From an uncultured virus (IMG/VR IMGVR_UViG_3300028887_000006) (taxonomy: Duplodnaviria; Heunggongvirae; Uroviricota; Caudoviricetes), in the IMG/VR virus record IMGVR_UViG_3300028887_000006: a stretch of DNA of 64,000 nt. One strand, 5' to 3'. This document shows, in pieces, positions 4,485 through 58,830 of the stretch. Made by a program: the position numbers and the translations under genes. Positions within the stretch are counted from its first letter, which is position 1; the number at the start of each line of letters is the position of its first letter. The notes beneath the pieces were generated by a model. That model ran no database searches and had not been told where the DNA came from. It was given only the letters and a program-made list of their open reading frames with translations.

Positions 4485-4512
4485 TTACATAGTCCTTTTA
4501 TATATAATATCC

Positions 4513-4540
4513 AAATCGGCGACTAAAAAGCCACCGATTT
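4513..4540 (-). terminator. Hairpin, probable terminator or stabiliser after the micropeptide
   Basis: Minus-strand AAAUCGGUGGCU-UUUU-AGUCGCCGAUUU. Confidence 0.6.
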
Positions 4541-4570
4541 TTATTTTTTTCTCTTTTTTCCGCACGGCAT
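4541..4570 (-). CDS. 9-aa basic micropeptide MPCGKKRKK
   Basis: SD AAGGAG upstream; homologue at 48844..48882 with synonymous codon changes. Confidence 0.7.
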   Translation of the reverse strand: MPCGKKRKK

Positions 4571-4603
4571 TTTTTTCTCCTTGACTTTTGGTTCTTGTTC
4601 TAG

Positions 4604-4909
4604 TTATAATTCTGTTGAAACGCTACTAGACTCGGTCGATGGCGTTTCTTTTTCTTCTGTCCATTGTCCAATCGCTTGCAAACGCAGTTTTTCTAGCGTT
4701 AATTTGTCGGTCGTTTCAGCATACGCTTGTTTGCGTAATTCGTGCATCTGCGAACGGGTTGGCACAGGTTCTGGAACAACGATTGTTTCGATAATACGAT
4801 ACGTTCCGTCGCCAACCGGTTCGGTCATCAGGTTCGGGTGATTCACAGCACAATAGTTAGCGAACGCAATATGTTCTTTTTTTGTAATAAATTGTCCTAC
4901 TTCATACAT
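4604..4909 (-). CDS. Tail fibre assembly/chaperone-like protein
   Basis: Directly after the tail fibre; ELRKQAY...D motif. Confidence 0.5.
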   Translation of the reverse strand: MYEVGQFITKKEHIAFANYCAVNHPNLMTEPVGDGTYRIIETIVVPEPVPTRSQMHELRKQAYAETTDKLTLEKLRLQAIGQWTEEKETPSTESSSVSTEL

Positions 4910-4920
4910 ATTTCACCTCT

Positions 4921-7900
4921 TTATGCTGCTACGCCAGACACCATCCAATTAGTCATATAATTTACCAAATGTCCGACAGTTATTGTGGTTGTAGTTTTTG
5001 ATTTTACTACGTTTCCATAATTAGGTGCATCGTTTCCTGAATACCCTGTATTACTGCATGCAAAATAATTTGTATCTGTCATTGTTATTGGCAAGTTTAC
5101 TGTTTTGGATGCAGAACTCGCTGTTGTTGATGAAATTTGTCCGCCTTGTTCTACCCAGCCAGATTTGTATTTACGATACCACGTGTAACCATTGCCTGCG
5201 TTTGGTTCTTGGCTTTCTACCACGTAGTCAATCATGTTTGTATTGGCAAAATCTAAATCTGCTTTATCGTTAAATAATTCTGCGTTCAGCCCAGCAGTAT
5301 TTTCTATTGCCGTCTGCGTAAATTCGCCAACATAGAAATACAGATATTTGTATTGGTCTGTGTCTTCAACAGGTGTTGAAATTATACCAGTTTGTGTAGG
5401 GTCTATTGATAATTTAAGTTCGGTTATTCCAGAGGAACCCATTGTTTTATCAGTTTTCATATAAACAGTTTGTCCATTGTTGCCTGCGTTCCAATGAACC
5501 GCTGTATCATTACCAATAACTGGTCTATCGCCATAATGTTCGTGTTTGCTACGTGGCAACTTAAACCGTTTGTTCGGTATATCTATGATATAATACCACG
5601 CTACACCTGTCGCTGTGTAAATGTTAGCAACGTTGGTTTCATCACTCACACTCACAATCTTTCTTCCGCTATGCCCTGTATAAACAGTCAACGAATAACC
5701 AGCAACCGTTTCCGTTGTCGGTGTAACATACGTGTTGCTCATATATGAATATGTATTGCCACTTACGGTTATTTCATCATTGACATCATCATAAGAATCA
5801 ACCGTTCCGATTTGTGTTGTCAGGTCACTATTCAAATACACCGCATCGCCTACCGCTGGTGTTCTTGATTTCGTGTATGCTGGACCACCGCCACCATACC
5901 AGTATGTGCTGACTTGCATATCATAGAACAAATCCCAGAAAGCCGCTTGATATACACTACCAGATTGCCAAGAGAAAGTATCGGCACGCAACCACTGAAC
6001 ATCATTACGCAACGCATCTGACCATTCCCACGCAAACAGGTCTGGGTGGTAACCACCAGTAGTCGCAACCTGAATATCGCCCGAACCCAAGATTGATTCG
6101 CCATTGATTGTCTTGATATTCGTTCCGCTGACTAATTCTGGTTGAAAACCAATCCAGCCACTAACGTTTGAACCACCGTTCCAGTATGTATATTTCCACA
6201 AATATGGCGTTTGATTACCACTTGTCATCGTCAGCACAATAACTTTATTTGCGGCGGTTGTTCCATCCATAATTTCAACAGTTACTTCGGCATTGACCAA
6301 CCCTGATGGCAAATCGCTGAATGTCACTTCGCCCAGATATGCCTTTCCTTTGGTTGCTGTGGTATCTGCCGCAACTGCATCACAGAACGCCTTGGTTGTG
6401 CCACTTGTTGACCAGCCCGCAGGGAATGTTAAATAGGTTGAACGGCTATCGACATAGTCCTTATTGACAATCTGTCCGCCCGCTGGATTAACCGGCATAA
6501 CAACCGTTGAATTGCCTGTAATTTCAATATCTTCAAACGAAATAATCTGTGGGTATGGTGTGAACTCTTTGCTCTGGTGGTTCCACAAAATACGCCCACC
6601 TTGTTGCCCTGCTTGTTCTGCTATATCCCAAATCTTGCTTGTAATTGGCACATAGCCGTCATACTCGGCAGGTGGTGTAATTGTTTCTGTTTGCACCCAC
6701 GCACCCGATTGGCGTTCGTATATCACAATTATTGGGTTACCTTGTCCATCGACTTGTGAAAAGTCCGCATAATTTGTGCCGTTTTCTGCACTTGGTGCAA
6801 CGGTTGCCGAATACATCTTTGCATACCATACACCTTGGTCGGTAATCATACGACCAGAGTTTGCCGCCAAGTCTACTTCACTTTTCAACGCCAATGTTTG
6901 TGGGCTATTTGTCACAGGAACCGCAATATCATAGCCGTTGTTTATAACAGACATATATGCTTTACCAGCAAGATACAAGTCTTTCCATTTGTTCGCACTT
7001 CTACCAAGGTCTATTGCGTTCGTTGTGACTGGTAAGAACTGGCTATCGGTCAGGTTTGCGATGTTTGTTATGTTTCCTTGTGAATCTAATTTCCAGAAAC
7101 TTACACCATTTAAGTACGGACCTACGGCACCACGCATAGAACCAGCCCTGAATTTTAACGGTGCCGTCATAATTGAAGTGCCGTCTATATTGACCTTTCC
7201 ATCTAATGCTGTTCCTGTATCTATAACAAACTGGTCGTAATCTTCTTTCAAATCGTCAAAATCTTCTTCCAATTCATCAAAATTGCGAGTGTTAGACGAT
7301 ATCGCATCGCCATCAACACGGCGTTGTAATGCCGTCAAAACACTCATGCCGTTGTAAATGGTAGCACTAGCCGTCGCATCACCGCAAAGCACCTGCACGT
7401 TCATTGTATCGCCAATTTCAGCGTGCAATGTAGCGGTTTCGCTCTCGGCAAAGTCAATCACAAATTCTTTACAAAACTCAAATGCTTCTTCACGAACATT
7501 AAACTGCTTTGTTATGATTGAATTGCCGATTTTAACCACTAGCGAGAATGGAATTTCGTTATAAACCGAACTATCTAAACTATGTCCACAGAGTTTCAGC
7601 ACCCATTTGGTATTTGGAGTAAAAATTTTTGGACTTGCAAACGTATAAGTCGCATTGACCCACAATGTATTGCCAGATGCCAAGAAAGAGCCAGTTAAAT
7701 CACGCCCATCGCCATAAACGGTCGTGGCTGATACAAGTGTTCCGTTTGACAGTTTCCAGTTGTCTGTGCCTTTCAAAACGGCTGTGGCGTTGCCCCGATG
7801 GTCAGAATATACAACACTGCCGTCAGACGTGCCTGCTGGCATATTTGCAAAAGTCGTCGGTGTGACTTGGTTTTTAATTTCCAACACCGATTTTGCCGTA

Positions 7901-27087: not shown

Positions 27088-27714
27088 ATGACTACTATTG
27101 AAAAATTACAAAAATTATACACTGAATTGCAAGGGGCGAACATTGAAAAATATGTCGACCAGAAAAACACTGGCAAAACCAAACTAGATTATTTGAGTTG
27201 GGGTGCCGCTGTTGACTTTTTTACAAAGGGCTGTCACGCTTTGGGGCTTGATTGGACTTATTCACATCGTTTTATAGATATGGGAACACGTGGGGCATTT
27301 GTTGAAACCACTGTGACGGTGTTTGATGCTGAAAATGGGGAAACAGTCGAAAAAATTATGTCGTTGCCTTGTATGACTTTAACAAACCAAGCCGCAAAAG
27401 ATGCTGATGTGATGAATATCAATAAAACACAGATGCGTGCGTTGGTAAAATGTTTTACGCTGTTTGGGTTGGGATTAAAGTTGTATTTGAAAGATTTTAG
27501 CGAATTAGATGAAGTAAAAATGGCATCAAGTAATAAACAAGATGAATTGGAAAAGAAAATCGCAATTATGCGTGAACGTATTAAAAAAATGCTGGACAAT
27601 TTAAGCCCTGAAACCGATGTGTCGCAATTCGCAGATTATGCCACTTGTGACGATGTAGAACGCTTGACGGCTATTGGTATTGCTGTAAAGAAATTATACG
27701 ACCAAGGGTGTTAA
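27088..27714 (+). CDS. Single-strand annealing protein (Sak/DUF1071-like)
   Basis: LDYLSWG, LPCM..TN, INKTQMRALVKC..FGLGL.LY. Confidence 0.85.
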   Translation: MTTIEKLQKLYTELQGANIEKYVDQKNTGKTKLDYLSWGAAVDFFTKGCHALGLDWTYSHRFIDMGTRGAFVETTVTVFDAENGETVEKIMSLPCMTLTNQAAKDADVMNINKTQMRALVKCFTLFGLGLKLYLKDFSELDEVKMASSNKQDELEKKIAIMRERIKKMLDNLSPETDVSQFADYATCDDVERLTAIGIAVKKLYDQGC

Positions 27715-27716
27715 AA

Positions 27717-27791
27717 ATGCACGTATTTGGTGGTTTAATATTGATTTTTACATTTGGACTAATATGGGGGCTAATAAAATGCATATTTTAG
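27717..27791 (+). CDS. 24-aa hydrophobic peptide MHVFGGLILIFTFGLIWGLIKCIF
   Basis: Translated by hand; SD aaggg. Confidence 0.45.
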   Translation: MHVFGGLILIFTFGLIWGLIKCIF

Positions 27792-27832
27792 GAATTATAT
27801 TGGCGTTGTGTTTCTTGGGAATGGCAAAATAA
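27779..27832 (+). CDS. 17-aa hydrophobic peptide MHILGIILALCFLGMAK
   Basis: Translated by hand; SD ggggg. Confidence 0.4.
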   Translation: MHILGIILALCFLGMAK

Positions 27833-27843
27833 AGGAAAGGGCG

Positions 27844-28572
27844 ATGAGAATTTACACAAAAGACGAACTGCCGCAGCATATGCCAGACGGAACCGCAAAT
27901 CCGGACTGGCTGGCAATGCGGGCTGGAAAATTTACTGGCAGTGATTTTTATTTGTTTATGTCGTTGCTGAAAAAGGGCGAACTAACCGACACCGCTGAAA
28001 GTAAATTGTACGAAAAAGTGCTGGCGAACTTTGGCGATTATCCTGAAAATATAACCAGTATGGCGATGGAACGTGGCACAGAGTTAGAGCCTGAAGCACG
28101 TGCAGAATATATTGCTGAAACCTTTAACGATGTGCAGGAGGTCGGCTTTGTTGATTATGAATCATTGCGTGCTGGGTGTTCGCCTGATGGGGTAGTATAT
28201 TACACAACAAATATTATAAATGATGAAATTTGGGAAGACGGACAAATAAAAAAAATTAAACCAAAGAAATATATATGCATAGACAGAACGGTTATTGATA
28301 AAATAATTGAAATTAAGTGTCCGGGCATAAAAAACTATATCAAGATGGCGAAAGGCAAAATTCCAATGCAGTATCTTGTACAAATGCAGTACAATATGTT
28401 AATAACTGGGGCAAAATCGTGCGACTTTGTTATCTATCACCCGAATATGCGTCTAGTGATTAAAAATATCAAACCAGACGAGCAAATGCAGAAAGATATA
28501 GTTGCTGTGCTGGAAAAATTAAATCCGCTTTACGACGAGATTTTAAGCGATATAGAAACAATGCGAAATTAA
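27844..28572 (+). CDS. YqaJ/lambda-exonuclease family nuclease
   Basis: WLAMRAGKFTGS, AMERGTELEPEAR, GCSPDG, EIKCP, YLVQMQ. Confidence 0.92.
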   Translation: MRIYTKDELPQHMPDGTANPDWLAMRAGKFTGSDFYLFMSLLKKGELTDTAESKLYEKVLANFGDYPENITSMAMERGTELEPEARAEYIAETFNDVQEVGFVDYESLRAGCSPDGVVYYTTNIINDEIWEDGQIKKIKPKKYICIDRTVIDKIIEIKCPGIKNYIKMAKGKIPMQYLVQMQYNMLITGAKSCDFVIYHPNMRLVIKNIKPDEQMQKDIVAVLEKLNPLYDEILSDIETMRN

Positions 28573-28991: not shown

Positions 28992-30785
28992 ATGGCAAAA
29001 GAAATTTTTATCACAGAAAACGAAAAAGCAATCGAGCAAGCGTTTTTGTTTTTCCCACGTGATGTTATCTCACGCAAGCAAATCAGCGAAATCAACCCCG
29101 AAGAAGTCACAGATGTGATTTTAGATGGCAACGACACCGAAATTCTTGACATTTTTACACGTGCAAAGAAACGGTATATGCCAAATGGGCTTGATTTTAA
29201 TGAAAATATTGATACACTTAATACGTCATTTACAAAGGGTTGTTGTGTGTATGAAACACCGGCACCAAAGCCACATACTGTGGATGACGATTATTTAACA
29301 GGGGACTCCTTTCCTATTGCTAATAACCAGTCCCCTGACCAAGATTCTGATGGATTTGACGACATGATTGACGACGAACTGTCAATGCAAGAGCAAATCG
29401 CAATTCTACAACCAATGTTGGACAATAAAAAAATCGGCGAAGGAACTGTTGCCGAACTTACAATGAAAGTTGTTGATTTATGCCAACAGAATAAACTTTT
29501 TGAACGAGATGTTATTACTGGATTATTCCGCACGGTGTTTTCTAAAAAACCACTAATATCTGCTATGCGTGCCGAGATGCTATTTAATTTGCATTTTTGC
29601 GATAAACTCGCTATACGCAATGCATCGTATAAAATAAACAAAGAAACAGGCGAACCAGAAAAAGACACCAAGTTCCGTATTATCAAACCAAACGAACTGA
29701 AATTGCTTTGGCAGGCCGTATCTGCATATTCTACTTTTAATTCACGCAAAGAGTTTTATGACGCAATACCACAATGGGATGGCGAAGACCGTATAAATGT
29801 GTTTATGAAACAATATTTTAATTGTGATACGAACCCAAACTTTTTTATGTTGCTTATGACTTGCTTGGTTGCAAAATTCTCACCACGCAACGATTATTGC
29901 CCGTATTTCTTTGATATTGTTGCAAGTTCCAAGGGCATCGGCAAATCATTTTTATGCAAACGGTTGCTGGGCGGTCAATATTGCGGATTCTTAAATTTTG
30001 CAGTTGGTCGTCGTGATGACTTTTATGTAAATGCGTATGACGGAAATAACGCAATTGTTGTTGATGACGAATGCACTTGGGTGTCTTCCACAAAATCATT
30101 TGGTAAAATATCACCCGATGAATTGAAATCTATTGTTACAACACCGACAGATAAATTTTCACGCAAATATGGGCAACCAGAAGAACACGAACGTTCGTTT
30201 GTTATTCTTCGTACTAGTAACGATGTAAATCAGGTGTATTCGACTAATGAACGTCGTCAAATAATATTTCAATGTAACTTGCCAGATTACGAGTGCCGTA
30301 TTAAAGATTTGCCAGATGAATATTTTCAACAAATGCTTGCACAAGCAAAGGTATATTATATACGCCATCACGGGATTTATCAACTAACAGACAACGACCG
30401 TCTTGAAGTGAAAGATGCAAACTTGGAAAATTACAACTGGGAAACAAAAGAAAACTATGCAATTTTGGATTATATCAAAGCAGTTAGAGAAGAACCAGAT
30501 AAATATGGCATAAAATTAAAAGCACAAAAATTTGGTTGTGAATTATGGGGCGGCCATAAACCTTATAATACTTGGTGTGACGAACACAAAAAACCTGCGC
30601 TTCCTGCCCGTGCATTTTGGCGTGCGGTGACAGCGTTAGCAGAATTGCCCGAAAATAATATTGTAGTTATTTCTACAACCAAATATGATATTGCGAGCGG
30701 TGGTTGTGCTCGTGTGTTCCGTATTGACCCAATTAAAACAGCCGAAGAACAGGAGTTAGACGACATACCCGACATTCCGTATTAA
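28992..30785 (+). CDS. VapE/VirE-like replication ATPase (primase-helicase type)
   Basis: PQWDGEDRI, KGIGKS Walker A, VVDDE, ELKSIVT...D.F.RKYG, TSND, NERR. Confidence 0.85.
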   Translation: MAKEIFITENEKAIEQAFLFFPRDVISRKQISEINPEEVTDVILDGNDTEILDIFTRAKKRYMPNGLDFNENIDTLNTSFTKGCCVYETPAPKPHTVDDDYLTGDSFPIANNQSPDQDSDGFDDMIDDELSMQEQIAILQPMLDNKKIGEGTVAELTMKVVDLCQQNKLFERDVITGLFRTVFSKKPLISAMRAEMLFNLHFCDKLAIRNASYKINKETGEPEKDTKFRIIKPNELKLLWQAVSAYSTFNSRKEFYDAIPQWDGEDRINVFMKQYFNCDTNPNFFMLLMTCLVAKFSPRNDYCPYFFDIVASSKGIGKSFLCKRLLGGQYCGFLNFAVGRRDDFYVNAYDGNNAIVVDDECTWVSSTKSFGKISPDELKSIVTTPTDKFSRKYGQPEEHERSFVILRTSNDVNQVYSTNERRQIIFQCNLPDYECRIKDLPDEYFQQMLAQAKVYYIRHHGIYQLTDNDRLEVKDANLENYNWETKENYAILDYIKAVREEPDKYGIKLKAQKFGCELWGGHKPYNTWCDEHKKPALPARAFWRAVTALAELPENNIVVISTTKYDIASGGCARVFRIDPIKTAEEQELDDIPDIPY

Positions 30786-30800
30786 ATTTTTACAAGATTG

Positions 30801-30829
30801 TCGACAAGTCGAAAAAATCGTGTTATAAT
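30801..30829 (+). promoter_or_regulatory. Promoter TCGACA-17-TGnTATAAT
   Basis: Sequence. Confidence 0.8.
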
Positions 30830-30835
30830 CAGTTC

Positions 30836-30889
30836 GGGTGGTGCAAAGAATCCTTCATCTCATTTCTCTCTCCCCTTTGCCACCCACCA
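30836..30889 (+). ncRNA. 54-nt stem-loop leader/small RNA ending in ACCA
   Basis: Starts at the predicted +1; GGGUGG...CCACCC-ACCA with a CU-rich loop. Confidence 0.45.
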
Positions 30890-30906
30890 AGATAAAGGAG
30901 AAAAAA

Positions 30907-31098
30907 TTGCGTATTATTATTTTAAGCCAACAAGGTTGTTCAAAATGTAAAGCATTGGCCGCACGATTTGCAGATGCCGAAGTGGTTGAGTTGCAACCGA
31001 GTTTGTTATTGCAATTAGCACGAGAATTAAACATTCATTCGTTACCAATTGTTCTATTATCTGGTGATAATCACGAACTCGAACAATTTATGGAGTAA
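30907..31098 (+). CDS. Glutaredoxin-like CxxC protein
   Basis: GCSKC...IHSLPIV; SD aaggag with TTG start; homologue of 38425..38619. Confidence 0.7.
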   Translation: MRIIILSQQGCSKCKALAARFADAEVVELQPSLLLQLARELNIHSLPIVLLSGDNHELEQFME

Positions 31099-31101
31099 AG
31101 C

Positions 31102-32793
31102 ATGAAAGTATTATCGCTATTTGATGGTATTTCATGTGGGAGATTAGCATTAGAACGTGTAGGAATCCCTGTTGAAAAATACTACGCCAGTGAAATTGAC
31201 AAGTATGCAATACAAGTCGCACAAAAAAATTATCCCGACACAATACAGGTCGGTGATGTCACAAAATTAAACTATTTGGAATTGTTGGACATAGATATGG
31301 TTATTGGCGGAAGTCCCTGCCAAGATTTATCCATAGCAAAACAAAATCGTGAAGGTTTGCGTGGGGCAAGGTCTGGTCTGTTCTGGAAATACGTGGAAGC
31401 ACTGGAAGTTATCCACCCAAAGTGGTTCTTGTTGGAAAATGTTGCCAGTATGCGAAACGAAGATAGAGATGCGATTACAGCAACATTGAAAAAGATATAC
31501 CCAGAAACCGAGTGCATTATGATAAACTCTGCACTTCTTTCGGCACAGCAAAGAAAAAGATACTACTGGACGAACTGGCACGTGGAACAGCCACAGAACA
31601 AAGGTATATTATTGAAAGATATTTTGGAAAGTGGCTATAGCTGCGATGTTGAAAATCAAGGGAAAAAACTGTGTAAAACGGTTGATAAAGCACAAACTTT
31701 GATGGCACGTGATTATAAAGGGTTTGGCAACCAACGGATGACAGGCGTTGCAGTTCCCTGTGTTATGCGAACACGTGAAGACGAATTAGGTAAGTTCAAG
31801 CGAGTTGAAACAAAAGACGATGGTAAAGCCAATTCACTTACATCTGTGCAGACAGATTCTATGGTGGCAGAACCAGTGAATATAAACGGCACTGAATATG
31901 AGTTTTATCAAAGTGAAAGAAAAAGCAAAACCGAATTAGATTATTTAGGTGGTGTTATTACTGGAAGAAAACAATGGTTAGAAGATGACACATATAAATC
32001 TAGGTCGTTTTCACAAGGGAATAGGGTTTATTCAGTTCGTGGGAAATCCGTATCGTTAAATGCAAATGGTGGTGGATTAGGTGCAAAAACAGGTTTATAC
32101 AAGGTTGACCTGCCAGATGGCGATTATATTATACGCAAACTGACACCAGTTGAATGCGAAAGATTACAGACATTGCCAGACGGGTGGACAGCAAAAGGAG
32201 CAATACAATGGAATTATGCAAGTGTGATGGGTGTAACAGAAAACGTAAAACTAACATTGGATTCTGCCTTATGCACTATAAACGATGGAAAAGGCGTGGA
32301 ACAACAGAGTTGCCAAAACACGAAAGAAAACAATGTAAATTTTGTAGCAGAGTTGCAATTGCAAGAGAAATGTGCGACAGGCATTATCAGAATTGGAAAC
32401 GGCACAAAGACCCAGAATATACAGATAAAATTAGACGGGGGTATAACAGATACGGCTATAAGAAATCCCAAGGAAAATATAAAGTCGAACATAGAAAACT
32501 TGCCGCAGAATTTATTGGAAGAGATTTGTTGCCAACAGAAGTGGTTCATCATATTAACCTTGATAAAAAAGACAATTCAAGAAAAAACCTATTCGTTTGC
32601 ACAAACACACAACATCAACAAATACACGCTCAACTGCAAGTTGTCGCAGGGGAACTCGTTAGAGATGGATTTATCGTCTTTGAAAATGGAAAGTATCGTA
32701 GAAATTTCTAACACACAGAGATACAAAGCAATCGGCAACGGTTGGACTTGTGATGTAATTGCGTGGATATTTAGTCAGATGCCAAAAGACTAA
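31102..32793 (+). CDS. DNA cytosine-5 methyltransferase with an in-frame insertion of about 170 aa
   Basis: LSLFDGI, GGSPCQ, LLENV, QQRKRYYW, RKLTPVECERLQTLPD, SNTQRYKAIGNGW. Confidence 0.95.
   Translation: MKVLSLFDGISCGRLALERVGIPVEKYYASEIDKYAIQVAQKNYPDTIQVGDVTKLNYLELLDIDMVIGGSPCQDLSIAKQNREGLRGARSGLFWKYVEALEVIHPKWFLLENVASMRNEDRDAITATLKKIYPETECIMINSALLSAQQRKRYYWTNWHVEQPQNKGILLKDILESGYSCDVENQGKKLCKTVDKAQTLMARDYKGFGNQRMTGVAVPCVMRTREDELGKFKRVETKDDGKANSLTSVQTDSMVAEPVNINGTEYEFYQSERKSKTELDYLGGVITGRKQWLEDDTYKSRSFSQGNRVYSVRGKSVSLNANGGGLGAKTGLYKVDLPDGDYIIRKLTPVECERLQTLPDGWTAKGAIQWNYASVMGVTENVKLTLDSALCTINDGKGVEQQSCQNTKENNVNFVAELQLQEKCATGIIRIGNGTKTQNIQIKLDGGITDTAIRNPKENIKSNIENLPQNLLEEICCQQKWFIILTLIKKTIQEKTYSFAQTHNINKYTLNCKLSQGNSLEMDLSSLKMESIVEISNTQRYKAIGNGWTCDVIAWIFSQMPKD
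32208..32711 (+). CDS. Nested HNH homing endonuclease (alternate frame inside the MTase)
   Basis: SD aaggag then ATG 32208; two CxxxxC...CxxHY zinc fingers; EHR...VVHHINLDKKDNSRKNL...H..IH. Confidence 0.9.
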   Translation: MELCKCDGCNRKRKTNIGFCLMHYKRWKRRGTTELPKHERKQCKFCSRVAIAREMCDRHYQNWKRHKDPEYTDKIRRGYNRYGYKKSQGKYKVEHRKLAAEFIGRDLLPTEVVHHINLDKKDNSRKNLFVCTNTQHQQIHAQLQVVAGELVRDGFIVFENGKYRRNF

Positions 32794-32812
32794 CAAACAA
32801 AGGAGAAGAAGA

Positions 32813-33196
32813 ATGCAAATAACAATCAAACGAACGTTTAAAGGGCCAGAATACACCATCGGCAAACTCTACATTGACGGGGCGTATTTCTGTGATACTT
32901 TGGAAGATACTGTCCGCCCCGATGGTGTAAAAATCTACGGCAAGACAGCGATTCCTGCCGGTGACTACAAAGTCAAAAAGACTTGGTCACCTCGGTTCAA
33001 AAAGAAACTACCCGAGATTCTTAATGTTAAAGGATTTACGGGAGTACGGATTCACCAAGGCAACAAAGCAACCGATACCGAAGGGTGTGTTTTGCTTGGG
33101 CTGAACAAAGTAAAGGGGGCAGTTCTGTGTAGCCAAAATACAATGGCGTTTTTTATGGACAGAACCCCAGACGAATTTGATTTAACAATAGAGTAA
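32813..33196 (+). CDS. DUF5675-family protein, putative endolysin
   Basis: TIGKLYIDG..FCDTLED, TAIPAG.Y, GVRIHQGN...DTEGCVLLG. Confidence 0.8.
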   Translation: MQITIKRTFKGPEYTIGKLYIDGAYFCDTLEDTVRPDGVKIYGKTAIPAGDYKVKKTWSPRFKKKLPEILNVKGFTGVRIHQGNKATDTEGCVLLGLNKVKGAVLCSQNTMAFFMDRTPDEFDLTIE

Positions 33197-33213
33197 AAAA
33201 GTTTTCGCTATTG

Positions 33214-33242
33214 TCGACAAATGCGATAAAAGATGTTATAAT
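33214..33242 (+). promoter_or_regulatory. Promoter TCGACA-17-TGnTATAAT
   Basis: Sequence. Confidence 0.8.
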
Positions 33243-33272
33243 AAAACTGTAAAACCAACAAAGGAGTAGCAA

Positions 33273-33587
33273 ATGGCAAATACACCAATCATTAAAAAGC
33301 GTTGTGGGGCTTTCTCTGTCGCTGTTTTTGAAGAAACCAAGCAGAGCAAATCGGGTGATTCGTATATCTCGCACAGCATCGTCTTGCAGAAATCTTACAA
33401 AGACCAAAACGGTGACTGGCAACGCCAATCTATCAATATGTTCGACAACAATGCACCAGAAGTCGCTTTCTTGTTGCAGTCAGCGTGGAACGATATGATT
33501 GATGGCAAAGGTGAACCAATGCCGACAGATTCCAAAGATGAATCAGTCGTGAAAGAACCAGATATTGACTCGGAATTACCTTTCTAA
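33273..33587 (+). CDS. Single-stranded DNA-binding protein (PC4/Whirly-like)
   Basis: KSYKDQNGDWQ, acidic tail ending DSELPF. Confidence 0.7.
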   Translation: MANTPIIKKRCGAFSVAVFEETKQSKSGDSYISHSIVLQKSYKDQNGDWQRQSINMFDNNAPEVAFLLQSAWNDMIDGKGEPMPTDSKDESVVKEPDIDSELPF

Positions 33588-33598
33588 AAGGACACAAA

Positions 33599-33829
33599 AT
33601 GGAATTATTATCAACACAAGAAGTAGCAAATGTTTTGGGAATCCACGAAAGCACAGTTCGGTTGTGGGCGACTAAGGGCAATATGCCTTTCAAAGCCATT
33701 AAAATCGGCAAGTTGTGGAAATTCCAAAAAACAGACGTTATGCAGTATCGTTATGGTACTGACTATGACCCAAACGAAGTAGGATTTAACAATGAAAACA
33801 GCGGAAACACTGCAAACAGCATTGGCTAG
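33599..33829 (+). CDS. HTH_17 excisionase-like DNA-binding protein
   Basis: LLSTQEVANVLGIHESTVR...KIGKLWKF. Confidence 0.85.
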   Translation: MELLSTQEVANVLGIHESTVRLWATKGNMPFKAIKIGKLWKFQKTDVMQYRYGTDYDPNEVGFNNENSGNTANSIG

Positions 33830-34016
33830 GTACGAGCAAGAACTCACCACGATTCGTCAAAAAATAAAAGAACTAGACGATGCGTGGGAAAGGGCTGGGG
33901 CTGTTATGGACAACCGTGCTTTCTTTGTTGCCTGCTTTGAAAAAAAGAAAGAATTGCGGAAGCAAGAAGCAGAAGCAGAGTTCAGAATCAAATTTACAAA
34001 ATGGGTTCTGGAATAG
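33792..34016 (+). CDS. Coiled-coil hypothetical protein
   Basis: ORF with SD. Confidence 0.6.
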   Translation: MKTAETLQTALARYEQELTTIRQKIKELDDAWERAGAVMDNRAFFVACFEKKKELRKQEAEAEFRIKFTKWVLE

Positions 34017-34248
34017 TTCGGGGGCGGGGTTTGAGTTCTCCTTTCACCGAAAAAAATTGCTGGCATACCAATTCCCCCAATGTATGCTTTTTAACGGGGC
34101 AGGGCATAATCTTTTTCTACATTCCTCATTGTCAACTCCTGCCCCACCAGAATTGAGTGTGGTGCCTACTAATTACAGGTTGTAAACCCTTTCTACCTAG
34201 GCTAGATAAAATCCGTTTTTAGCAAGTCCACACTCACCCCTAGGGTGA
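34016..34248 (+). ncRNA. Structured non-coding cluster (several hairpins, one ACCA-ended 54-mer at 34096-34149)
   Basis: GCAUAC/GUAUGC, GGGGCAGG/CCUGCCCC and UCACCC/GGGUGA stems. Confidence 0.45.
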
Positions 34249-34253
34249 TAGAT

Positions 34254-34424
34254 ATGAAAAGTTGGAAACAAGAAAGACTTCGTAGAAAAAAATTATTGCG
34301 GTATATTAAATTCCAGCGAATGATGCGTAAAATATTTATAGCGGATTTTAAGCGTCGTATAATAGAGAATATTCTTAATGGGACAAAATATATAAAAATA
34401 AACAAAGGCAATAACGATGACTAA
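34254..34424 (+). CDS. 56-aa basic protein (MKSWKQERLRRKK...)
   Basis: Translated by hand; overlaps the next start. Confidence 0.5.
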   Translation: MKSWKQERLRRKKLLRYIKFQRMMRKIFIADFKRRIIENILNGTKYIKINKGNNDD

Positions 34425-34758
34425 CATTATAAATCTTGACCCGACAACTTGGAGCAAACAAGACTGGCGTGATGCGTATGAATCGCATTGTGCGGCCGCC
34501 AAGCAACCTTTGAGCAAGAAAGAATACTATGCGACCGTTATGGCGAACGCAGAACGCTTAAAACCTGTCCTACAACCGCTTTCTGACGAATTGCGGGATA
34601 AGTGGACTAACGGCTGGCGAAACGCTGTTGTATGGGCAAAAAAACGCAAATGCGACTTTAATGGGGTGGCGTTGGAAAACTGCCGACCAGAAATCAATTT
34701 GGAAGAACTGCAAAACGATGTGAGAGATTTACAATGGGAAATGTCGCTGAAAAGATAA
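34417..34758 (+). CDS. Hypothetical protein
   Basis: ORF in operon. Confidence 0.65.
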   Translation: MTNIINLDPTTWSKQDWRDAYESHCAAAKQPLSKKEYYATVMANAERLKPVLQPLSDELRDKWTNGWRNAVVWAKKRKCDFNGVALENCRPEINLEELQNDVRDLQWEMSLKR

Positions 34759-35231
34759 CCTTAATTACCGATACCAGAGAAAAATTGGCTCTTGACTTTT
34801 CTTACAGCAAGTCCGTGGAATCTGTTGTTATAAAAAAGTTAGACGCTACTGATTACTCAATTTTGGGCTATGAGCACAAATGGGGTTGCGAAAGGAAGGC
34901 ACGTGGCGACCTTGTAAATACGCTAGTTGGCGACCACGATAGATTCAAGCGTGAAATGGAACGGCTGAAAGATTATGACGAAGCGTATATTTTGGTTGAA
35001 GGCACGCACGAAGAATTGGCTAAATATTGTTTGCATTTTGGCAACGGCAAAGCATTAAATACGATTTATGGTACTTTGTTAAAATATGAAAAGCACTACC
35101 CAGTGACCGTTCAATTTTGCAAAGACCGTCGGTTTATGTCGGATTATATAATTCGCAAAGCACAAGAATATTTACAAAAGAAAGGAGAGCAAAATGACCA
35201 ACCCAAAGAAAAGGATAATCAAGATAGTTAA
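34734..35231 (+). CDS. ERCC4-domain nuclease
   Basis: DTRE, LDATDYS, CERK, RFKREMERL, ILVEG. Confidence 0.88.
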   Translation: MGNVAEKITLITDTREKLALDFSYSKSVESVVIKKLDATDYSILGYEHKWGCERKARGDLVNTLVGDHDRFKREMERLKDYDEAYILVEGTHEELAKYCLHFGNGKALNTIYGTLLKYEKHYPVTVQFCKDRRFMSDYIIRKAQEYLQKKGEQNDQPKEKDNQDS

Positions 35232-54687: not shown

Positions 54688-57600
54688 TCATTTACACTCC
54701 AAGTCTTTTAAGAAGTTATCTAAATCTTTATCTGCAATCTTATCTTGGTGTTTGAGAGATTCATCCAACAGTTTAAGTGCAGAATCGTATTCTTGTTTAG
54801 CTTTCTTATTATCTAACGCCTTATTGAACTTCATATCAAGTGATTTCAATGCAGACACAACGTCAATATCGGTTGATTGCTTGAAATTACGGAATCCTGC
54901 GACACGTTGACCTAACTCTTTTGCCAAACGATTCGCTACTTCGCTGTTTTTCAATTCGTCAATCAAGCCCAAATCGCCATTTTCAACAGCCAAACGTTCC
55001 AGAGCAGTGTATAAATCTTCCTTATACAACCCTTCAACTTCTGCCATTTGACCGTTAATTATCGCCAAAGCATCATCAAGACGTGTTTTTACAAAGTTGT
55101 CTGCCACTTCTGCCACTTGCATCATATCACGATGTGAATCGTATTTATCGCCCTTTAATGCCATACCGTTTCCGTCTATTTCCTTAGCCAATGCTGACAA
55201 TCTGCGTTGGATACTGTTTTGGTTTCCACCTTCAACTTCATAACGTGCTGTATCATTTAAGGTCTTTGCTTCTTCGAGTGCCAGTTTTGTTTCTTCGTCT
55301 GTTGTGTTTTCAATAACAGTATCTATTGCACGGTTTAACTTTTCGTTCGCCGCTTGTGATTCTGTCATTTCGCCACGTTCAACCATAACATCAAGGTCTG
55401 TGATATTAACTACACGGTCAAACCATGCTTTCAGTTCTGGTTTTAGTTCGCCTAACCTACCCCATGTCTGTTTGAAATATGGGTTGCTGATGTCGTTATA
55501 AATATCACGCAGTTCGCCCTGATAATCTTTCATCAGTTTTTCAACGGCATCTCTGTCTTTGTTGTCAACACTGATAAACTTTGTCCAATCTTCGTTTTGA
55601 ACAATCCATGCTTCGTAAGCACGAGCAAATGCTTCACTTGCCTTACGTGGTACAGACGTTGCATTTTCTGGTATTCCAAGAGCTTTTTCCAACGCACCCC
55701 ATGCTTTCATGAAATCTTTGCTTTGTTTCCCAGAACGATAGCGGTCAAAGTTTGCTTCCATCCAGTCATGAGCCAATTCGTGAGATAATGTGGAAGCATC
55801 CATCTTGTTTGCACGCAAGATAAATCTGTATTCTGGTATGTATGCACCACGATATGTTGATGGTGCGGCACCAGATGGGCGGTTTTGCCAGTAAATATTC
55901 CCAGTATCCGCGCTGAACGTGCCACGGTTGTCTACAGATTTGATTTGACTTGGTTCAAAAACAATATGTTCGTCCCCTGCAATAGTCCCATCATAACCAC
56001 GTGATTTTATGATGTTTGATAATTCTTCGGCAAGACCATTTGTTCTGATGTAATCTGTGAAAGATAAATCTTGAATCAAGAAATTCAAATCGTTGAAATG
56101 TGCATATTCGCCCCAAGCATTATTCAACGCATTTTCTTTGGTATCTTCTTTTTCGTTATAGCCGACTTCTTCCCAAGGTCTATATGAATTTGATTCATAA
56201 CTTCTGCCGTTTTTCTCAAAACTTGCCCGCCAAACTTGAACTTCGTTGTGTTTTGCATCGTAAGTATAGATTTTTTCCACCTTGGCATTTTTCAAAAATT
56301 CTTTTTTCAATCTTTCGTATTTATTAAAATCTTTCAAGTCGTTTTCTGCCAACAACCCCAAATCTTTTAATAATTGTCCGCCGCCTTCAAACAAATTATC
56401 ATACAACCCAGAATAATAACCACCGGTTGATACAATAAATGGTTTTTCTATTTTAAGATACACCGGCATTACAATTCTTCCATAGTATCGTGCTTCTGAT
56501 TCTATTGGTGTAAAGTAAAATCCCGAACCGAAGAAACCACTGTCTGTTGCATAACCAAATGTTGTTGGATCAAAACTATCAAATGTATTGCTTGTGCCGT
56601 GATACATAACAATAGGTCTGCCTTCTTCGTCAACCACCTTTGAATCGCCAAACCATTTATAGAAATTACGCAGGGCAGGTTCTGATTGTGCGATGCGTTC
56701 GCCGTTTGAATTATAAACTGTGCGTTCTTTTCCGTCTATGTTGATTGTTTCGCCCTTGTATTCAGGGTAAATATCGTCAAGACGTGCGTTTTCATCAGCG
56801 ATGTCAAACTGTTCTTGGAACATTGGTTGTTCGCCAAACCCGATATTAACACCACCTTTTGCCTTTTTGTTGGTCTGTGGGTATTTGTTTTCTATCAAGT
56901 TGCGAATACGCGCCAATATCTGCTCTGGTGTCATCGTTGCTACGTTGAAATTGGCAACAACAGATTTATGCAATGTGCCTATTGGCGTAACACCCAAGCG
57001 AATCTTAAAGCCTTTCCCACCTTGTGGGTTTATCTGTAAATATACAGCACCGTGTTTCGTTGGCTTCAATTCATCTATTTTTTGTACATTTACACCTTCG
57101 TTAGACAATGTATTGAACACGAGAGATGCCGAACTATTAGCCAATTCTTTTTGTTCTTGTGTAGCTTCAAACGCATCTAACGCTTTCTGTTTTTCTTTTT
57201 CAACGTATCTATCTTCAAGTTTCTTAAACTCTGTTGCAAGGTCTGATACTCTTTCCAACACATACTGGCTTGCTTGTGCCAATTTATTTTCGGTTTCTTC
57301 AATTTTCGCCCAATCTTTCTTTTCGGCTTTGTTCAATTCTTCCAGTTGGGATTTTAATTCAACAATATTATCGTTGATAGATTTGATTTCGGCACGTTGT
57401 GCTTCTGGTATGCCTTCTCTAAACCAACCAAGTTCATTTACTTCGCCTTGAAATATCTCATGGTCTGTGATTTCAATACCACGGTCTATCGCATCCATAG
57501 CAATCAGGGAATATTCCAAATCTGTGGTAGCGTCTATTATTGTGTCTTTGTTGTCCACATCAACATCACGATACATTAACGCTACTTTATTGCGTAGATT

Positions 57601-58830
57601 GTTACGCAAAATTGGGTCTTGTGAAGACATTTCAGCTGTGTTATCTATCATAGCATCTGCGACTAATTGTGCTTCTGTATCGCTAATATTTGGTAGCGTA
57701 GTTTTAATACCTTTCACAAGATTGCGTCTGTTTACATAAAAGGCAGTTGTTCCCATTGTGCCACCGATAAACAAACCCCACGCAGCACCCTTTAAGGAAT
57801 CTTCAAAACCTTCTTTCCAAGTTTTATCGGTTGTTCCTTCTATTTTACGGAACAAGGTTTCAGTTAATCCTTGCAATAATTCTTCGGTTGCTTCGCCAAC
57901 ACCAATCTTAGCCGCTGCCTTTAATCCAGCAGAGCGCAAGCCAACCTTTGTCAACGCACCTGCCATAATAGGTTCAACACCGCCCATAAATTCGATTTGC
58001 GCACCAATCGCACCATATGCAGCAGCAGACAAACCGCTTGCATCTTTTGCTGTAAAGTTTTCAAAATTCTTGTCGCCAGTGCGTTGTAAATACTGTGCAG
58101 CCGTTTCTTCTGCGTATTGTCCAGCCATTTCGGCACCAATATACCCTTTTGCTACGTTGGTTGCTATTTTAGTTGCGGCGGCTCTTCCGGCACCAAATGC
58201 GCGACTTGTAGCAAATGCGGTATTTCCAACAGCCATAGTAGGGACCATAGCACCAATTATAGCACCAGCTTCGTTATACCATTTGCTTGAATCTATCCCT
58301 TGTGCTTGATTATACAATTCTCTAACCAACTTTCTGTTTTCCACATTAGCAGTGGTGTTAGCAATAACTCTTCTTGCCCATTTGTCCACAGAATAATCAC
58401 GTCCAGAAAGCAATTTAATCGTTTCATCTAATGATTCTTGGTCTTCTTCAAACGCCTTTCTTAATTTTTCTCTTTTGTTTTTATCTGCAAGAATAGAAAC
58501 AACGTCTACTGCTGGTTCATATCTTCCTGTGCTTTCCAAAACACCCTGAGCAACTAAATTAGCAATATTTGATGGCAAATTCACTAAAGAATCTACCATA
58601 GAACGCCCAGCCGATAACACGGGTTGAGATGCTTTAGCTACAGGTGTATACGCTTGTGTTCTGATAGCTATAGGGTCTTTCCAATCTGCTGAAATCTTTG
58701 CACTGCGAACCAAATCTGCACCTGTCATAAATTTAGGTTCGGCAGTATCTGATTCGCTCAAACTAAATGGCTGTCTTGCCGCTAATGATTCATCATAATT
58801 ATCTAAATCTTTCCCAAGTATCTCAGCCAT
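54688..58830 (-). CDS. Large polyvalent internal virion protein with ADP-ribosyltransferase-like and HExxH domains
   Basis: FYKWFGDSKVVD..GRP.VMYHGT...GFYFT...VYLKI.KP...GYDG....EHIVFEPSQIKS; STLSHELAH. Confidence 0.8.
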   Translation of the reverse strand: MAEILGKDLDNYDESLAARQPFSLSESDTAEPKFMTGADLVRSAKISADWKDPIAIRTQAYTPVAKASQPVLSAGRSMVDSLVNLPSNIANLVAQGVLESTGRYEPAVDVVSILADKNKREKLRKAFEEDQESLDETIKLLSGRDYSVDKWARRVIANTTANVENRKLVRELYNQAQGIDSSKWYNEAGAIIGAMVPTMAVGNTAFATSRAFGAGRAAATKIATNVAKGYIGAEMAGQYAEETAAQYLQRTGDKNFENFTAKDASGLSAAAYGAIGAQIEFMGGVEPIMAGALTKVGLRSAGLKAAAKIGVGEATEELLQGLTETLFRKIEGTTDKTWKEGFEDSLKGAAWGLFIGGTMGTTAFYVNRRNLVKGIKTTLPNISDTEAQLVADAMIDNTAEMSSQDPILRNNLRNKVALMYRDVDVDNKDTIIDATTDLEYSLIAMDAIDRGIEITDHEIFQGEVNELGWFREGIPEAQRAEIKSINDNIVELKSQLEELNKAEKKDWAKIEETENKLAQASQYVLERVSDLATEFKKLEDRYVEKEKQKALDAFEATQEQKELANSSASLVFNTLSNEGVNVQKIDELKPTKHGAVYLQINPQGGKGFKIRLGVTPIGTLHKSVVANFNVATMTPEQILARIRNLIENKYPQTNKKAKGGVNIGFGEQPMFQEQFDIADENARLDDIYPEYKGETINIDGKERTVYNSNGERIAQSEPALRNFYKWFGDSKVVDEEGRPIVMYHGTSNTFDSFDPTTFGYATDSGFFGSGFYFTPIESEARYYGRIVMPVYLKIEKPFIVSTGGYYSGLYDNLFEGGGQLLKDLGLLAENDLKDFNKYERLKKEFLKNAKVEKIYTYDAKHNEVQVWRASFEKNGRSYESNSYRPWEEVGYNEKEDTKENALNNAWGEYAHFNDLNFLIQDLSFTDYIRTNGLAEELSNIIKSRGYDGTIAGDEHIVFEPSQIKSVDNRGTFSADTGNIYWQNRPSGAAPSTYRGAYIPEYRFILRANKMDASTLSHELAHDWMEANFDRYRSGKQSKDFMKAWGALEKALGIPENATSVPRKASEAFARAYEAWIVQNEDWTKFISVDNKDRDAVEKLMKDYQGELRDIYNDISNPYFKQTWGRLGELKPELKAWFDRVVNITDLDVMVERGEMTESQAANEKLNRAIDTVIENTTDEETKLALEEAKTLNDTARYEVEGGNQNSIQRRLSALAKEIDGNGMALKGDKYDSHRDMMQVAEVADNFVKTRLDDALAIINGQMAEVEGLYKEDLYTALERLAVENGDLGLIDELKNSEVANRLAKELGQRVAGFRNFKQSTDIDVVSALKSLDMKFNKALDNKKAKQEYDSALKLLDESLKHQDKIADKDLDNFLKDLECK

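Follow-up and report, generated by a model that had tools for sequence, protein, structure and literature searches.

A probable homing cassette of the ShiLan kind: an HNH endonuclease gene nested out of frame in an open phage C5 DNA methyltransferase gene

To our knowledge, homing endonuclease genes have been thought to persist in conserved genes only by means of self-splicing introns or inteins. I-HmuI is a resident of a group I intron that gets spliced out, and in inteins with a homing endonuclease the nuclease shares the frame of the host and the element is excised from the protein by a Hint domain. A splicing-free design was published in 2025 with the ShiLan domain of mycobacteriophages, in which an HNH gene lies out of frame within an open methylase frame; the domain is described as lacking an intron or intein signature and as disjunct in its distribution (PMC11855218). 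An insertion in gp60 of Pacc40, which we compare by description only, likewise places a nuclease-like ORF out of frame in an open methylase frame; its host gene encodes a fusion of helicase and methylase, and the ORF, of AP2/HNH-like type, has no relationship to that of ShiLan (PMC11855218).

Here we analyze a locus of similar design in a 64,000-nt stretch of DNA from an uncultured member of the Caudoviricetes (IMGVR_UViG_3300028887_000006), hereafter the window. We consider it likely, with a probability of roughly 80%, that the locus holds a homing-type HNH cassette of the ShiLan kind, seated in the motif IX-X loop of a phage C5 methyltransferase that is translated straight through it. The phage stems from a bovine-gut metagenome, has a low G+C content and is not an actinobacteriophage. 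The region 30000-35000 gave no match to named phages by megablast, and the nearest record (G001) is identical to the window at the methyltransferase/HNH locus.

Anatomy of the methyltransferase gene and the nested HNH gene

The locus comprises the following features, all on the plus strand:

31102..32793 (+): C5 cytosine DNA methyltransferase ORF, 563 aa (PF00145, phrog_116, ORF list)
32134..32190 (+): motif IX segment RKLTPVECERLQTLPDGWT, the final host residues ahead of the cassette
32194..32700 (+): 507-nt cassette, corresponding to 169 host-frame codons and missing from empty alleles (contig joints)
32195..32200 (+): Shine-Dalgarno-like AAGGAG, 7 nt 5' of ATG 32208
32208..32711 (+): HNH endonuclease ORF, 167 aa, in frame +2 relative to the methyltransferase (PF13392, HNH PHROGs)
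32701..32712 (+): host codons E-I-S-N adjoining the cassette, within which the HNH ORF terminates at its TAA
32722..32745 (+): motif X (YKAIGNGW), which shares its frame with motif IX across the cassette

A preliminary description of this DNA had proposed a complete HNH gene hidden in a second frame of an unbroken methyltransferase ORF, and both ORFs are indeed present. The host ORF matches PF00145 (C5 DNA methylase) with 135 bits, a match restricted to residues 1-369 of 563, and its PHROG match is phrog_116 (DNA methyltransferase). Motifs I, IV (PCQ), VI (ENV), VIII, IX and X of C5 methyltransferases were all found, and the FxGxG, PCQ, ENV, QxRxR, motif IX and GNG columns are invariant among 68 methyltransferase homologues. 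Motif IX (RKLTPVECERLQ) begins at 32134. The spacing between motifs IX and X amounts to 198 aa in the window methyltransferase versus 29-31 aa in insert-free homologues, and the separation by about 170 stop-free codons noted earlier corresponds to 169 codons without a single stop.

The nested frame is open from 32154, with the ATG at 32208 and the TAA at 32709-32711. Its 167-aa product matches PF13392 (HNH_3) with 33.8 bits at a cut-off of 24.8, as well as HNH PHROGs. The start lies 14 nt into the cassette, and those 14 nt, which include the AAGGAG motif, are the only cassette bases outside the HNH ORF; at the other end, TAA-C occupies 32709-32712. Start codon, ribosome-binding motif and protein length thus agree with the preliminary description, as does the stop codon, which overlaps the S-N codons of the host stretch E-I-S-N. 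The two zinc fingers and the intact HNH core described there are borne out by conservation: the ligands of both Cys3-His modules (C4, C9, C20, H23 and C43, C46, C56, H59) and the core residues with the His/Asn/His metal site (H114, H115, N123, N127, H136, H140) show no variation among 31 sequences. Of 31 related HNH starts, 11 have a Shine-Dalgarno-like motif in front of them (background 13.6%).

The AlphaFold2 model of the HNH protein has a mean pLDDT of 90.6. When it was compared with solved HNH enzymes for a putative beta-beta-alpha-metal fold, VIA ranked I-HmuI first (1u3e_M; Z 5.9, rmsd 2.4 A over 66 residues, 23% identity), followed by HNH enzymes at Z 3-4. Neither Foldseek on the model (E <= 0.001) nor a PDB sequence-profile search based on the aligned HNH proteins (E <= 0.01) gave a hit; the structural matches of the predicted protein are thus only middling. 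When the whole methyltransferase is modelled, confidence is high for the catalytic domain and the motif X helix (pLDDT 77-84 in the last two blocks of 10 residues, the motif X part), and the cassette residues have values of 25-47. The target-recognition region (residues 190-360) is likewise poorly predicted (22-42), and the model therefore cannot place the loop relative to DNA.

Both the window cassette and ShiLan sit in the same host enzyme family, as PF00145 also matches the Constella gene-104 product. In both, the insert lacks host-frame stops, the HNH gene has the same frame offset, begins some 14-18 nt inside the insert and closes with TAAC at the 3' boundary, and neither shows an intron or intein signature. 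The two nucleases are distantly homologous: tblastn with the window protein found the cluster J copies with an identity of 33.6% across 81% of the query (E 2e-9), beneath annotations reading 'DNA methyltransferase'. For the ShiLan protein, too, I-HmuI is given as the best structural match in Table 1 of the report (PMC11855218). The insertion sites differ, however. On the 324-position profile, the ShiLan site in a cluster J copy comes after position about 172, shortly beyond motif VIII, whereas the window cassette separates motif IX from motif X at position about 300. Initiation seems to differ as well, since the window HNH has AAGGAG and ATG, while for ShiLan a GTG without ribosome-binding site and leaderless initiation are proposed (PMC11855218). 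Moreover, the N-terminal modules of the Constella protein fall to helix-turn-helix families below Pfam cut-offs in place of two zinc modules, and ShiLan occurs in actinobacteriophages rather than in a low-G+C phage of the bovine gut. Judged by sequence, the window cassette is the same kind of element as ShiLan but of a separate lineage, because the insertion site differs and the nucleases share only 33.6% identity. The preliminary description had drawn this parallel, and the design in the paper is indeed the same (PMC11855218).

Cassette boundaries, empty alleles and stop avoidance

The boundaries could be fixed with insert-free relatives, the check that had been proposed for them. Empty alleles were taken from metagenome contigs at least 85% alike to the window; given this threshold, they represent relatives and not the same phage. 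All four joints, found in contigs from the two runs X3 and X11, jump 518-527 nt with 11-20 letters standing between the sides, and the net skip is always 507 nt. Since contigs of other runs skip this net length, we place the cassette at 32194-32700, close to the span of 32188-32715 given earlier. At the joint 32193->32713, the 12 letters between the sides encode G-V-S-N in the empty allele versus E-I-S-N in the window, and empty homologues read TxGVSNTQRYK at the flanking site.

The distribution of the cassette among related methylases is patchy. Contigs of run X3 include both filled and empty alleles. About 13 of the best 120 methyltransferase homologues carry an insert at the motif IX-X site, in at least three length variants, and when viral loci were seeded with the methyltransferase, all 61 of the 80 loci that held both motifs were empty. 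According to the ShiLan report, the first residues of the insert resemble those following the site (PMC11855218). For 36 loci, the opening 60 nt of the insert were compared by alignment with the 45 nt of 3' flank, against 300 shuffles per locus, and a direct repeat or target mimic was rejected as a general feature (1 of 36 loci at p < 0.05; z mostly -1 to +1); an 8-nt match between insert start and 3' flank in the window is at chance level.

Within the window cassette, the host frame has no stop in 169 codons, compared with 19 stops in the third frame. Synonymous resampling of the HNH codons yielded a mean of 5.0 stops with window codon usage (zero stops in 16 of 20,000 trials) and of 5.4 with host-gene codon usage (P(0) 0.0005), so that an open frame by chance, already considered very unlikely in the preliminary description, has a probability of 0.0005-0.0008. 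We then extended the comparison to related loci. These were searched by HNH alone, and the family is therefore not biased toward open host frames. In the embedded set (54 rows, 7 of them flagged duplicates), 52 rows have no host-frame stop, with 14-34 stops in the third frame; 12 distinct relatives without flanking methyltransferase motifs contain 2-11 stops in the same relative frame. Wherever both motifs are present (43 of 43 loci), motifs IX and X share one frame, the insert length is divisible by three and no stop occurs in the host frame. The HNH frame is +2 in all 31 loci in which the HNH-motif pattern matched. For 33 distinct loci, codon resampling given the HNH protein and host-gene usage predicts 3.9-16.2 stops (mean 8.8) against none observed, with P(0) at most 0.006 in each.

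The two exceptions, L066 and L069, contain host-frame stops that are TGA only and never TAA or TAG. In these contigs, TGA occurs at conserved Gly positions and is read as sense, and under tables 25 and 4 the longest open stretch grows to 525 aa (before, 143 aa) in one and to 550 aa (before, 104 aa) in the other. Stop avoidance thus tracks the stop codons of the host itself. The earlier proposal that selection keeps the host frame open, for which stops across homologous inserts were to be examined, is supported by this outcome, and the TGA-recoded phages act as a natural control in an unusually clean case for selection (0 stops versus 4-16 expected per locus). Of the two overlapping frames, the HNH frame is the conserved one, with a mean identity of 43.5% versus 29.0% for the host frame and the higher value in 528 of 528 pairs.

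Persistence of the cassette and alternative explanations

These observations fit a model in which the 507-nt cassette comes with a ribosome-binding site of its own and an entire HNH_3 gene in frame +2, and the HNH protein would be made through internal initiation on the methyltransferase mRNA. It would most likely nick or cut the uninterrupted motif IX-X site in related phage genomes, whereupon recombinational repair could copy the cassette into the cut site; we infer homing from the nuclease family, the patchy distribution and the co-occurring empty alleles. No splicing step would be involved. As the cassette is a multiple of three in length and stop-free in the host frame, the methyltransferase is probably translated straight through, its 169 extra residues forming an unstructured loop ahead of the motif X helix, which then rejoins the catalytic domain. 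Selection at the level of the phage would purge cassette variants that truncate the methyltransferase. The preliminary description had also named ribosomal bypass and split translation; both are disfavoured, because the insert is a multiple of three and motif X is in frame in 43 of 43 loci. By eye, no canonical slippery heptamer for a -1 frameshift fusion of methyltransferase and HNH was seen in 32154-32208.

An unrecognised self-splicing intron, or another form of removal at the RNA level that would make the open host frame incidental, deserves consideration in so far as HNH genes of this fold are classically intron-borne and I-HmuI is the best structural match. I-HmuI, which targets a conserved coding site, resembles the window protein in its HNH_3-type core. 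Yet a search of 30500-33500 on both strands against Rfam retrieved no intron family at E values up to 10, and with just 14 nt ahead of the HNH ORF and 0 nt behind it, the cassette has no room for a group I intron core, as had been pointed out before. Furthermore, an intron requires neither a length divisible by three nor an open frame, both of which are found in 43 of 43 loci, and stop avoidance follows the genetic code of the host. We therefore regard intron-like removal as very improbable, and in contrast to I-HmuI, the window nuclease would reside within a gene whose own frame is read through. The sole row of the Rfam search was a chance lncRNA match at 33297-33403. Among the listed runs that contain the locus, none is recorded as RNA, and two marked as possible RNA are probably DNA.

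Removal after translation, whether through an intein of unconventional type or through proteolysis that trims the loop, would likewise account for the open frame and the length, and Ser is the residue that follows the insert. Inteins, moreover, resemble the cassette in being translated in frame with the host and in their seat in conserved motifs of host proteins. The nuclease lies in another frame here, however, and Pfam detected PF00145 only and no Hint or intein domain on the 563-aa ORF. The intein ends are absent, in line with the preliminary description: the insert begins with Lys (or Ala-Lys) and ends in ...IVE-I before Ser, not in Asn. In addition, the host-frame peptide is poorly conserved (29% versus 43.5% for the HNH frame) and is predicted by AlphaFold2 to lack a confident fold. 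Such processing of the protein hence seems most unlikely.

More weight, albeit still little, may be given to an insert that is read through and yet not actively homing, be it a passenger with largely vertical inheritance or a domesticated nuclease that, for example, excludes competing phages. The identities of the HNH and of the 128-aa flanks correlate over 31 loci (Mantel r 0.39, 0 of 5,000 permutations as high; L067 and L073, with short upstream sequence, were left out), as do those of the HNH and the full-length methyltransferase in the 9 loci caught by the motif I pattern (r 0.73), and much of the cassette history may for this reason be vertical. The uniform +2 offset in the 31 placeable loci and an HNH identity that falls to about 33% among embedded copies point in the same direction. 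On the other hand, the nearest neighbour of the cassette is also that of the flank in only 5 of 31 loci, and three loci (L018, L046, L051) share HNH proteins that are 86-87% identical while their methyltransferases are 58-61% identical. Close relatives of the window methyltransferase carry other cassette variants (P0056 and P0041, 93-97% identical in the best local match, 32% of the query) or none (P0005 and P0021, 94-96% identical over 39-46% of the query), and one run (X3) holds empty and filled alleles side by side. A purely non-homing insert is accordingly improbable in our view, and we favour the homing-type cassette.

The dual-coding principle as such is already in print. Like ShiLan, the window cassette would persist by dual coding, with the host enzyme translated through the insert, and the design is now seen outside actinobacteriophages, at another site within this enzyme family and in dozens of divergent metagenomic phages. 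For annotation, it follows that frame +2 should be checked whenever a long stretch of apparent nonsense separates motifs IX and X of a C5 methyltransferase. The IX-X loop, moreover, seems to accommodate 170-260 additional residues, and this may be of use for engineering methyltransferase fusions.

Taken jointly, the data allow a broader and speculative reading, which we hold to be possible but doubtful. The IX-X hinge might be a general landing pad for a third lifestyle of homing nucleases beside introns and inteins, in which the nuclease stays in both mRNA and protein and is written such that the host frame never stops. The lineage might be old, considering the HNH identities down to about 33% at a constant offset, and might adapt to the genetic code of its host, given that TGA is tolerated only where it is sense. 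It may be kept partly by the edge of its carrier over co-infecting relatives with empty alleles, and would then serve as an exclusion weapon without cost, instead of being purely parasitic. Some branches would carry their own -10 box placed for leaderless starts. In the window, the sigma-70 scan gave no usable evidence for a promoter of the HNH gene: the candidate TTGACC-16-TATTAT at 32105-32132 lies in host-coded sequence, and the 10 sites of the region do not exceed the number in shuffled sequences (6.6 +/- 2.7). Among the relatives, exact or near TATAAT boxes, as a raw count without shuffle control, occur no more than 45 nt from the HNH start in 20 of 31 loci.

The HNH gene and the boundaries of its cassette

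The preliminary description had claimed a complete HNH endonuclease gene in a second frame within an unbroken C5 DNA methyltransferase ORF, and this was confirmed by ORF calls, Pfam and PHROGs. Its own Shine-Dalgarno (SD) sequence, its ATG and a TAA overlapping the resuming host codons were likewise confirmed in the sequence.

31102-32793, + strand: C5 DNA methyltransferase ORF, 563 aa; PF00145, 135 bits, residues 1-369 only (Pfam); phrog_116 methyltransferase (PHROGs)
32134 (start), + strand: motif IX (RKLTPVECERLQ), methyltransferase frame
32154-32711, + strand: nested HNH ORF in another frame, 167 aa from ATG 32208; PF13392 HNH_3, 33.8 bits against a cut-off of 24.8 (Pfam); several HNH PHROG families
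32195-32200, + strand: AAGGAG, 7 nt upstream of the HNH ATG
32709-32711, + strand: HNH TAA, overlapping the host codons Ser-Asn
32722 (start), + strand: motif X (YKAIGNGW), methyltransferase frame

Motifs IX and X are 198 aa apart in the window, compared to 29-31 aa in insert-free homologues in which both motifs were matched. For boundary mapping, contigs from four public runs were aligned to the methyltransferase gene; these are metagenome contigs with at least 85% likeness to the window and hence represent relatives, not the same genome. Contigs in runs X3 and X2 span the insert, with aligned pieces at 32062-32747 and 32080-32777, while in four others, from X3 and X11 of a single study, 518-527 nt are missing and 11-20 other letters stand in their place, a net difference of 507 nt in all four. 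The cleanest joint, 32193 to 32713 with 12 letters between, yields W-T-A-G-V-S-N-T-Q, as in insert-free homologues such as the proteins P0005 and P0035. Because of these joints and this match, the alignment to insertion-free sequence fixes the cassette at 32194-32700, that is 169 codons. The four host codons that follow read E-I-S-N in the window, where the HNH ORF runs into them and terminates, and G-V-S-N in the empty allele.

The two zinc fingers and the intact HNH core noted earlier were upheld by 31 aligned HNH proteins, in which the zinc-module ligands C4, C9, C20, H23 and C43, C46, C56, H59 are invariant, as are H114, H115, N123, N127, H136 and H140. Across the inserts of 33 loci (528 pairs), identity was 43.5% in the HNH frame compared to 29.0% in the host frame, and the HNH frame was higher in every pair. 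The AF2 model of the HNH protein has a mean pLDDT of 90.6. Foldseek returned no match for it at E <= 0.001, with HNH enzymes at the top of the list, and VIA-align placed the homing endonuclease I-HmuI (1u3e_M) first (middling Z of 5.9, rmsd 2.4 A, 66 residues), with further HNH enzymes ranking next at Z 3-4. When the full-length methyltransferase was modelled by AF2, confidence was high for the catalytic domain and the motif X helix but low for the cassette residues (pLDDT 25-47); the recognition domain is equally poor, so that the loop cannot be placed.

Stop avoidance in the host frame

The window cassette contains no stop in the host frame, compared to 19 in the third frame. When codons were resampled with the HNH protein kept, a mean of 5.0 stops was obtained with window usage (zero stops in 16 of 20000 trials) and of 5.4 with host-gene usage (P(0) 0.0005), in agreement with the proposal that the frame is kept open beyond chance. 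Viral and metagenome contigs were searched for the family with the HNH protein as the only query, and the family can therefore not be biased toward open methyltransferase frames. Wherever motif IX and X patterns flanked the HNH (43 of 43 loci), they shared one frame, the insert length was 3n and the host frame lacked stops. The HNH frame was +2 in all 31 of these loci in which the HNH-motif pattern of the script matched, and the HNH stop lay 10 or 13 nt upstream of the motif X Tyr in 28 of the 31. Stop avoidance was also borne out in the embedded set, defined as the 54 rows whose HNH match spans 120 aa or more (7 of them marked as duplicates): 52 rows had no host-frame stop, compared to 14-34 stops in the third frame. 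Codon resampling at 33 distinct standard-code loci predicted 3.9-16.2 stops (mean 8.8) where none was observed (P(0) <=0.006 in each). The corresponding frame holds 2-11 stops in 12 distinct relatives that lack methyltransferase motifs on their flanks (ORF list inspected for one copy, L006).

The two exceptional rows are metagenome loci:

L066 about 1040-1760; L069 about 960-1680: same cassette in TGA-using metagenome contigs

They have one and two host-frame 'stops', respectively; all are TGA, and TAA and TAG are absent from this frame at both loci. TGA occupies conserved Gly positions in motif X (GNG) and in the HNH of both contigs, and reading TGA as sense (tables 25 and 4) extends the longest open stretch from 143 to 525 aa in L066 and from 104 to 550 aa in L069. 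Since long ORFs arise only under these tables, both look like phages of a TGA-recoded host. The loci serve as a control: their 'stops' are TGA only, and avoidance therefore tracks the codons that the host itself reads as stops. Such avoidance is a prediction of translation through the insert and is not predicted by constraints at the DNA or RNA level.

These findings bear on alternative readings of the insert. An intron is unlikely, as Rfam returned no intron family on either strand in 30500-33500 at E up to 10, and the HNH ORF leaves no more than 14 nt of the cassette uncovered. An intein is made unlikely by the lack of a Hint domain in the Pfam search of the methyltransferase ORF and by the ends of the host-frame insert, which starts with Lys and ends with Ile-Val-Glu (then Ile, Ser) and thus does not have intein ends. 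Ribosomal bypass or split translation, which are disfavoured as well, would require neither a length of 3n nor motif X in frame. Overall, the results support the earlier interpretation of the insert as a selfish homing element, neither intron nor intein, that spares its host by keeping the host frame open; read-through of the cassette, activity of the methyltransferase and of the HNH, and homing are predicted from sequence.

Relation to the ShiLan domain and history of the cassette

The parallel to ShiLan, which the preliminary description had suggested, is real, and the design is the same. According to the article by Arsenault, Gosselin and Gogarten (PMC11855218), the ShiLan domain adds 202 aa to a mycobacteriophage methylase and leaves the host frame free of stops, its HNH lies in the third frame, starts 18 bp in and ends with TAAC, its distribution is disjunct, and signs of an intron or intein are absent. 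ShiLan elements of cluster J phages are the best named-phage matches of the window HNH (E 2e-9, with 33.6% identity across 81% of its length) and are covered by 'DNA methyltransferase' annotations; Constella has them as the overlapping genes 104 and 105. The host enzyme is PF00145 in both. In contrast, the cluster J insert is found past motif VIII, downstream of about position 172 of 324 in the profile, whereas that of the window lies near 300 of 324. Full-text literature searches found no description of the motif IX-X lineage and only the ShiLan paper and a 2023 precursor on the topic, although the repository or supplements of the former may list cases. The window cassette is well supported as a new member of the kind published in 2025, with a lineage and an insertion site of its own, and not as a new principle. 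Annotation of the ShiLan-bearing gene takes three forms in cluster J mycobacteriophages (Bombitas gene 109, L001; Constella genes 104/105, L002; Schatzie): a single methyltransferase, a pair of overlapping genes, and 'coding region not determined'.

Several results on distribution and identity point to movement of the cassette. About 13 of the 120 best methyltransferase homologues carry inserts at the IX-X site, in at least three length classes (169, 212-213 and about 250 aa). Identity to the window enzyme is 97% for P0056 and 93% for P0041 (best local match, 32% of the query), two homologues with other cassette variants, and 96% for P0005 (46% of the query) and 94% for P0021 (39%), which lack a cassette. 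Among 80 loci retrieved from viral contigs with the methyltransferase as seed, all 61 with both motifs were empty (60 with 81 nt, one with 90 nt). The nearest neighbour of the cassette is also that of the 128-aa flanks in just 5 of 31 loci, and at L018, L046 and L051 HNH identity is 86-87% compared to a methyltransferase identity of 58-61%. However, HNH and flank identity matrices are correlated (r 0.39, reached by 0 of 5000 permutations), which counts against pure horizontal spread, and the history of the cassette looks mixed.

Within 27088-28572, shortly before the replication and methyltransferase genes, the window also encodes two phage recombination proteins, a pair that could supply the repair step of homing:

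27088-27714: Sak single-strand annealing protein, PF06378
27808-28572: YqaJ exonuclease, PF09588

On one viral contig (L040), two ORFs (2414-3604 and 4386-5465) both have motifs IX and X, one filled and one empty; N-terminal catalytic motifs are absent from both, and the methyltransferases may be split or two-subunit. P0004 carries a 212-aa cassette variant, but its tail becomes divergent halfway along and stops short of motif X. As judged from the protein alone, it appears truncated; a frameshift, other damage to the gene or an artefact of the contig may be the cause.

Expression of the HNH gene and neighbouring genes

Strong promoter-like sites flank the operon on both sides (30801-30829 and 33214-33242), and we infer that AAGGAG and ATG would suffice for internal HNH initiation on the methyltransferase mRNA. 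In this the window copy differs from ShiLan, for which no ribosome binding site was found and leaderless GTG starts were proposed (PMC11855218). Among related loci, an SD-like motif precedes 11 of 31 HNH starts, compared to a background of 13.6%, and an exact or near TATAAT lies within 45 nt of the start in 20 of 31 (a raw count without shuffle baseline). At the 5' end of the cassette in L038, L039, L047 and L049, six bases separate an exact TATAAT from the HNH ATG, and an SD is lacking. This spacing suggests leaderless transcripts and echoes the proposal for ShiLan.

The gene directly 3' of the methyltransferase (32813-33196) matches phrog_1501, of unknown function, and a relative of it adjoins the filled methyltransferase in locus L004 on the opposite strand. 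Further downstream, 54688-58830 (- strand) encodes a 1380-aa protein with an ART-PolyVal ADP-ribosyltransferase domain (PF18760) at residues 734-969; such domains occur in polyvalent proteins of mobile elements.
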